From an uncultured Coxiellaceae bacterium (lineage in GTDB: Bacteria > Pseudomonadota > Gammaproteobacteria > DSM-16500), in contig CAZYJL010000007.1 of the NCBI GenBank assembly GCA_964647825.1, positions 43,268-107,267 of the forward strand: a DNA stretch of 64,000 nt. Reading direction: 5' to 3'. The first letter of the stretch is position 1. Each line of letters opens with the position of its first letter. The notes below the pieces were generated by a model. It saw only the letters and a program-made list of their open reading frames with translations. It had not been told where the DNA came from and ran no database searches. Shown here piece by piece: positions 9,105 through 9,269 of this stretch. A program made the translations under genes and the position numbers.

Positions 9105-9269
9105 CAGTAGGAGTATTTTTAACGACTTGACTGACCGCAATTGCCAAACAGCAAGCAGTATTTTACTAATAAAATACGCTTCATGTGATAAGAAAAGGCA
9201 TGGCGCGATCATTTTCAACAGCCGATAGGCAACTGATATGCAGTCAAGTCGTCAAAAATACTCCAACTG
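9105..9269. repeat. MITE-like repeat family A, copy 1 (~165 bp, ~29-bp terminal inverted repeats CAGTAGGAGTATTTTTAACGACTTGACTG / CAGTCAAGTCGTCAAAAATACTCCAACTG)
   Basis: Non-coding. Perfect-to-near-perfect TIRs seen directly. Homologous copies at 21184-21351 (inverted), 38950-39115 and 53481-53647. Confidence 0.7.

Follow-up and report, generated by a model that had tools for sequence, protein, structure and literature searches.

The DNA at 9105-9269, described by the first-pass annotation as a non-coding MITE, probably represents a lineage-restricted, non-autonomous family of MITE-type palindromic repeats without coding capacity, with units of ~170-190 bp made of 30-38-bp inverted ends around a core of ~110 nt. 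We give this reading a probability of about 0.65. Four copies were located in the window, by which we mean the whole stretch of 64,000 nucleotides that was analysed. All four lie where they had been proposed, including the one reported as inverted (21184) and the one reported as degenerate (38950):

9096-9278, plus strand: copy 1, the best preserved, between rodA and mltB, delimited by an inverted-repeat finder
9096-9133 / 9241-9278: 38-nt terminal inverted repeat of copy 1, GTAATGAATCAGTAGGAG...CTCCAACTGTTCTATTAC, 87% match
9105-9133, plus strand: left 29-bp arm of copy 1, CAGTAGGAGTATTTTTAACGACTTGACTG, with its partner arm at 9241-9269
21175-21361, minus strand: copy 2, inverted in the window, with a well-kept core and a lost terminal stem
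38949-39115, plus strand: copy 3, degenerate, with a bulged stem
53480-53648, plus strand: copy 4, between umuD and umuC, with 30-nt arms that are 90% complementary

Homology among these copies was examined with copy 1 (9096-9278) as the sole query, which makes the test non-circular. With this query nhmmer recovered 53480-53655 (E 7.5e-26; blastn 77% over 177 nt), 21186-21342 on the minus strand (E 2e-24; blastn 82% over 143 nt) and 38960-39050 (E 2.5e-8). Pairwise identity among copies ranged from 54 to 77%, and a search with the four-copy profile detected no fifth copy in the 64-kb window. Global alignment of the 100-nt flanks on each side of the copies gave 41-54% identity, which is background level; the copies are thus discrete units and not segmental duplications. 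Duplication together with the flanks, named by the first-pass annotation as part of what would overturn its proposal, was examined in this way: the flanks are unrelated and similarity stops at the element ends. Since the four neighbourhoods also carry unrelated genes and pairwise E-values lie between 1e-8 and 1e-26, the probability that the copies stem from segmental duplication or resemble each other by chance is negligible.

The 29-bp termini attributed to copy 1 are present, with 27 of 29 positions complementary (9105-9133 / 9241-9269). Terminal inverted repeats are a sound description of copies 1 and 4, at the lengths and matches listed above, but they are degraded in copies 2 and 3. When the arms were aligned by eye, 6 of the 8 extended further outward to a GTAA(T/G) end and one further arm ended in GTAG. 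The GTAA(T/G) ends would thus bring the full unit to ~183-192 bp; across copies, unit size is about 167-192 bp. The element end reads GTAATGAATCAGTAGGAGTATTTTT... and the conserved segment CTTGACTGACCGC; the conserved core measures ~110 nt and the spacer between the arms ~107 nt.

The statement that the copies share both termini and core stands only in part. The core and the inner 9 bp of the arms (CTTGACTG / CAGTCAAG) are 70-100% identical among copies 1, 2 and 4, but identity of the outer arms between copies drops to 30-65%, the sole exception being one left-arm pair (85%). Copy 2 combines a left arm of the 53480 type with a right arm of the 9105 type. Membership of the 38950 copy holds for its left ~100 nt (38960-39050) and for the inner right arm GCAGTCAAA, but the remainder is unmatched. 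On the evidence of their sequences the copies are old, two having a near-perfect terminal stem and two decaying.

That the outer arms are the least and the core the most conserved part argues against a MITE, since it is the reverse of what is expected when a transposase recognises the ends. Greater conservation of the core and inner stem than of the outer arms would instead suit a selected cis-acting structured RNA module: a core of ~110 nt, closed by a stem constrained to pair, lying in sense orientation in 3′ untranslated or intercistronic regions, where it would bind a factor or set processing or stability. Folding data bear directly on this alternative. The predicted minimum free energy of the RNA was -64.1 kcal/mol for copy 1 (z -8.5 against shuffled sequence) and -52.4 kcal/mol for copy 4 (z -5.5 against shuffled sequence). 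Copy 3 keeps a bulged terminal stem of 24 pairs and copy 2 is without a terminal stem. In the four-copy alignment of the 29-pair stem, 76.5% of cells were paired, compared with 33-45% when partner columns were slid, and 9 stem pairs were changed on both sides. Such two-sided changes favour constraint on the RNA, but master-copy subfamilies, or quasi-palindromes corrected by template switching, can produce covariation of the arms as well.

The strand that folds best is also at odds with a sense RNA: relative to the host genes, the antisense strand folded 7-16 kcal/mol more stably than the sense strand in all four copies. Similarly, the two intact stems contain three transition mismatches, each of which is A-C in sense and G-U in antisense. 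However, the sense strand is A-rich and the same shift appears in shuffled sequences, so that no conclusion is drawn from the stability of the antisense fold; this advantage may be compositional.

Genomic context gives the second line of evidence. The features flanking the four copies are the following:

7956-9089, plus strand: rodA, upstream of copy 1
9341-10333, plus strand: mltB, downstream of copy 1
20600-20965, minus strand: clpS, downstream of copy 2 and followed by clpA
21495-22799, minus strand: icd, upstream of copy 2, with a REP-like hairpin between
38700-38945, plus strand: small signal-peptide ORF upstream of copy 3, its stop codon 3 nt before the copy
~39143-39180: terminator-like hairpin with a T-run, downstream of copy 3 and followed by an orphan gene
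52951-53469, plus strand: umuD, 172 aa from the ATG at 52951, intact
53682-54947, plus strand: umuC, 421 aa, covering the Pol V UmuC profile in full

As the first-pass annotation reported, copy 4 occupies the gap between umuD and umuC, which measures 212 nt (stop at 53469, ATG at 53682) and is mostly filled by the element; both genes are intact. The UmuD C-terminus (...VIHAV*) ends at the same position as that of the nearest relative (...VIHQV*), and the umuC start codon, 34 nt past the element end, is preceded at 8 nt by an AGGAG Shine-Dalgarno sequence of its own. The premise that these two genes normally lie close together is borne out by the two nearest relatives carrying both, where the gap is 12 nt (L085) and 6 nt (L087). 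The rodA-mltB junction behaves similarly. It spans 251 nt here, whereas the gaps estimated in distant relatives are mostly 2-60 nt, an estimate limited to loci where the MltB alignment covers the N-terminus; of the 82 loci where tblastn matched RodA or MltB, 68 have mltB as the next gene after rodA. At each junction the extra length roughly equals one element. A LexA box (CTGT-N8-ACAG) was absent throughout the window. The minus-strand ORF at 38747-38986, glycine-zipper-like and starting within copy 3, was rejected as a mirror artefact, since it is the plus-strand ORF that encodes a signal peptide and is preceded by a Shine-Dalgarno sequence.

All four copies share the orientation of their flanking genes, and three of them begin 3-14 nt 3′ of a stop codon. 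Both observations are consistent with the structured RNA outlined above, and so is the distribution of intact stems, which are found in the two intra-operon copies, the stemless copy at 21184 probably lying outside a transcription unit. However, four copies are too few for the shared orientation to reach significance (p about 0.06-0.12), the genes next to them have no function in common (cell wall synthesis, icd/clpS, a small secreted protein, Pol V), and two of the four copies are degraded. Furthermore, functional RNA motifs are usually common to relatives, but neither the 1.3 Mb of related Legionellales loci nor any of the collections searched yielded a homologue. Selection for a cis-acting RNA is thus unlikely to be what maintains the repeat. 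Its more elaborate form, in which a domesticated, lineage-specific module (~110-nt core and covarying 30-bp stem) placed after stop codons would control the processing of operon transcripts and, at umuD-umuC, set the stoichiometry of the mutagenic polymerase, we hold to be quite unlikely.

Returning to the preferred reading of a non-autonomous MITE-type repeat, a simple model would be that a transposase from another part of the genome, or one since lost, mobilised the copies in trans. The rodA-mltB and umuD-umuC copies would be co-transcribed with their operons, and the transcript would fold back into an RNA duplex of ~30 bp. The likeliest outcome would be cleavage of the transcript at the stem, of the RNase III type known from the Correia elements of Neisseria, or a change in its stability; ERIC elements of Yersinia, with RNase E, offer a second analogy. 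At umuD-umuC, tight translational coupling would be lost and ribosomes would start umuC at its own Shine-Dalgarno sequence, leaving Pol V functional with a UmuD:UmuC ratio that could shift. We infer that copy 4 may affect Pol V expression.

The element itself is non-coding. It contains no conserved ORF: short ORFs vary in frame and length among copies, and the peptide common to these spurious ORFs is only ~10-15 residues long. An antisense peptide (MKR...) was discarded as a conserved product because its frames break between copies. Promoter-like and terminator-like sites in the copies showed no excess over shuffled sequence, no U-tract follows the stem in any of the four copies, and no copy carries an exact IHF consensus. 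Over the element, Rfam gave no match at gathering level. With E up to 10 allowed, the best value, 0.26, belonged to models of eukaryotic snoRNAs and miRNAs and amounts to noise; the lack of any true Rfam match even at this level is another point against the selected RNA considered above.

These results weigh on two suggestions of the first-pass annotation. A promoter, attenuator or polarity role is not backed by the sequence, the relevant sites being at shuffled level. A small-RNA or terminator-like structure fares no better, given a stem without U-tract and without Rfam family. In its general form, the latter idea makes each copy an independent small-RNA gene or a transcription terminator. 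QMITE loci of Coxiella do yield small RNAs, and copy 1 has a weak antisense promoter-like site (ATCACA-18-TAAAAT) whose TAAAAT is kept in three copies. However, besides the shuffled-level frequency of such sites and the stems devoid of U-tracts, the two best copies are intra-operon, and strong termination there would exert polarity on mltB or umuC. We regard this explanation as very unlikely.

Other structured elements were considered and rejected. These were an integron attC site, a retron non-coding RNA, an IS110 bridge RNA and a TnpB/IscB guide RNA. The repeat shows no R″/R′ core sites, has no reverse transcriptase, recombinase or nuclease gene next to it, and gave no Rfam match.

As regards mobility, the MITE proposal agrees with the small size, the lack of a conserved ORF, the long inverted repeats, the dispersed copies and the two expanded junctions, but not with the target sites. 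Comparison of the eight termini of the four copies revealed no consistent target-site duplication, TA included; a flanking direct repeat, CGCC(TTA), was seen at copy 2 only. Duplications may have decayed in old copies. The absence of a transposase from the window, already reported, was confirmed by Pfam scans of ~50 ORFs, none of which carried a transposase domain.

An enzyme that makes no target duplication would explain these missing duplications. In this alternative the repeat is a doublet similar to REPINs or BIMEs, or an element moved without target duplication by an enzyme of the Y1/RAYT, IS200/IS605 or IS110 type. The GTAA(T/G) ends on 6 of 8 arms and the GTAG on another recall the GTAG found at REP 5′ ends, the position directly past stop codons is extragenic as for REPs, a separate family of REP-like hairpins is present in the same window, and QMITE2 of Coxiella joins terminal inverted repeats to a GTAG REP. 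On the other hand, single arms are not palindromic REPs, the spacer (~107 nt) is long and conserved unlike those of REPINs, and Pfam scans found no RAYT, TnpA or IS110-type gene in the window. Such an origin thus appears improbable.

The REP-like hairpins constitute a second repeat family, GC-rich (CTGGATNCCGCGNATAAANCGCGGNATGACAG), each copy lying just 3′ of a gene stop codon and one of them 40 nt from copy 2 of the MITE-like repeat. The hairpin pattern gave 3 matches in the window against 0.00 expected in shuffles. Its copies are:

21400-21431, plus strand: REP-like hairpin
28626-28657, plus strand: REP-like hairpin
41907-41938, plus strand: REP-like hairpin
48184-48216, inverted: REP-like hairpin

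Copies outside the window are suggested by contigs of the same organism assembled in Logan from two runs (SRR10912416 and SRR10912418). These contigs are identical to the window, and all four of their junction-side ends fall within elements:

6583-9154: contig L001, ending inside copy 1
9127-10699: contig L084, starting inside copy 1
38978: end of contig L082, inside copy 3
53550: start of contig L083, inside copy 4

Contig ends inside elements are most simply read as points where the assembly graph branches at a repeat. The overlap between L001 and L084 consists of 28 nt of conserved core (9127-9154), and these 28 nt are not identical in the other three window copies; further copies are therefore likely to exist elsewhere in the genome.

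We then considered the host lineage and the distribution of the repeat. Best matches of RodA are 67-69% identical and belong to metagenome-assembled genomes of uncultured Coxiellaceae and Legionellales. Identical proteins came only from the source's own 107-kb NCBI contig and from the same two Logan runs, and the next-best UmuC among 5.8 billion proteins was 59-60% identical. With the nearest RodA at 69% and the nearest UmuC at 60%, the source represents an orphan lineage in the collections searched. A degenerate 26-nt pattern of the core had no match in genome_contigs (one genome per species, 185,579 species), metagenome_contigs or viral_contigs. With a looser gapped pattern of three blocks, which recovered all four copies in the window, five stretches came up in metagenomes, all due to chance (nhmmer E above 1). 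The nhmmer profile, run on 87 loci (1.3 Mb, mostly of Legionellales relatives), matched only contigs of the same organism. Searches by blastn returned two sub-threshold chance matches in plasmids (E 0.5) and none in phages, and 5,426 complete E. coli genomes gave no match at E up to 1, on which ground ERIC, REP, BIME, IRU, RSA and Box C were rejected as its identity. Literature searches, on MITEs in Legionellales and on the two run accessions, were likewise negative. As far as seen within the collections searched, the repeat family thus appears confined to this lineage.

The window contains other repeats and features of its own. A third repeat of ~400 bp, with an internal long palindrome (GCTTCTCCCACAAGGGGAGAAGC...), occurs twice in mutually inverted orientation, with blocks sharing 74-85% identity; comparable in size to Coxiella QMITE1, it may represent a further MITE-like family. 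An orphan ORF of 420 aa without Pfam family, immediately 3′ of umuC, is enclosed by a direct repeat of 112 nt whose copies are 92% identical, and contig L083 ends inside this direct repeat. Close by, one intergenic stretch shares 83% identity with part of the POT-family transporter gene. These similarities 3′ of umuC suggest a past local duplication or rearrangement. The sole gathering-level Rfam match in the window was a TPP riboswitch, upstream of an operon for an ABC transporter and an NMT1/THI5 protein. A DabA/DabB-type pair, which probably transports inorganic carbon and includes a proton-antiporter-like subunit, adjoins a LysR regulator and umuDC. The window also encodes a Fic-domain protein and five large ORFs (420-712 aa) without Pfam family, a combination that fits an effector-rich, host-associated genome of Legionellales type. 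The positions are:

3219-5357, minus strand: large ORF without Pfam family
12375-12487, plus strand: TPP riboswitch, Rfam RF00059, 71.9 bits
16100-16520 and 33130-33560: ~400-bp repeat
16519-17997, minus strand: large ORF without Pfam family
39226-40746, plus strand: large ORF without Pfam family
46343-47923, minus strand: large ORF without Pfam family
48291-51936, minus strand: DabA/DabB-type pair
54958-55069 and 56421-56532: 112-nt direct repeat
54996-56258, minus strand: large ORF without Pfam family, the orphan ORF within the direct repeat
56322-56415 and 61182-61275: repeat pair formed by an intergenic stretch and part of the POT-family transporter gene
62340-62741: Fic-domain protein

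The repeat family is new in sequence and ordinary in kind. If our reading is right, it is a MITE-like family not described before, in a lineage of Coxiellales/Legionellales that is poorly sampled and probably associated with a host, and it offers a clean natural case of an element wedged into two tight operon junctions with the genes undamaged. For annotation, the element accounts for long spacers and assembly breaks in this genome. It also raises the question whether a 30-bp double-stranded RNA stem between umuD and umuC alters the balance of Pol V subunits, for which the copy at this junction is a reasonable experimental handle. Such an effect, if any, would resemble the known behaviour of Correia and ERIC elements, and the insertion between umuD and umuC is a curiosity that would not surprise a specialist.

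Several families of extragenic palindromes can be compared with the repeat. REP units are palindromes of 20-40 nt with short spacers, mobilised by RAYT proteins without target duplication. The repeat resembles REP, BIME and REPIN structures in being extragenic, directly past stop codons, with hairpin-forming inverted units and no target duplication, but its arms are not palindromic on their own and enclose a conserved core of 107 nt. ERIC (IRU) of Enterobacterales and YPAL of Yersinia are imperfect palindromes of ~127-170 bp in transcribed intergenic regions, with orientation-dependent effects on the flanking mRNA and compensatory stem changes that suggest constraint at the RNA level. Here the imperfect palindrome and the intergenic location are similar, whereas the host lineage is another and sequence similarity is absent. 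Correia (NEMIS) elements of Neisseria are MITEs of 100-155 bp with inverted ends of ~26 bp, often co-transcribed in operons, and are characterised by TA target duplication, an IHF site and outward promoters. The repeat likewise is a small MITE with inverted ends and intra-operon sites, and cleavage of a double-stranded RNA stem was adopted from these elements as the functional model; in contrast, it shows no TA duplication, IHF site, promoter signal or sequence similarity. Missing the first two of these, it was not identified as a Correia element. Effects of co-transcribed MITEs on messages are documented, Correia being cut by RNase III and Yersinia ERIC exposing RNase E sites (PMC10969869).

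The nearest analogue is QMITE2 of Coxiella burnetii, an element of 150-190 bp with terminal inverted repeats, located mostly in 3′ untranslated regions (Wachter et al. 2018, PMC5896051). QMITE2 carries direct repeats of 7-11 bp, its GC-rich GTAG REP core is targeted by IS1111, its predicted fold reaches -113 kcal/mol, and its copies are old and conserved between strains; it can overlap the last bases of the upstream gene and is also found in intergenic sites (PMC5896051). We found no IS1111 near the copies described here and no GC-rich REP core in the element. Compared with the published description of QMITE2, the repeat differs in having no consistent direct repeats and no REP core, and in a stem that is AT-rich and less stable. 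The two are nevertheless alike in host group (Coxiellaceae/Legionellales), size, inverted ends, stable predicted hairpin, 3′ untranslated or intergenic location and old copies.
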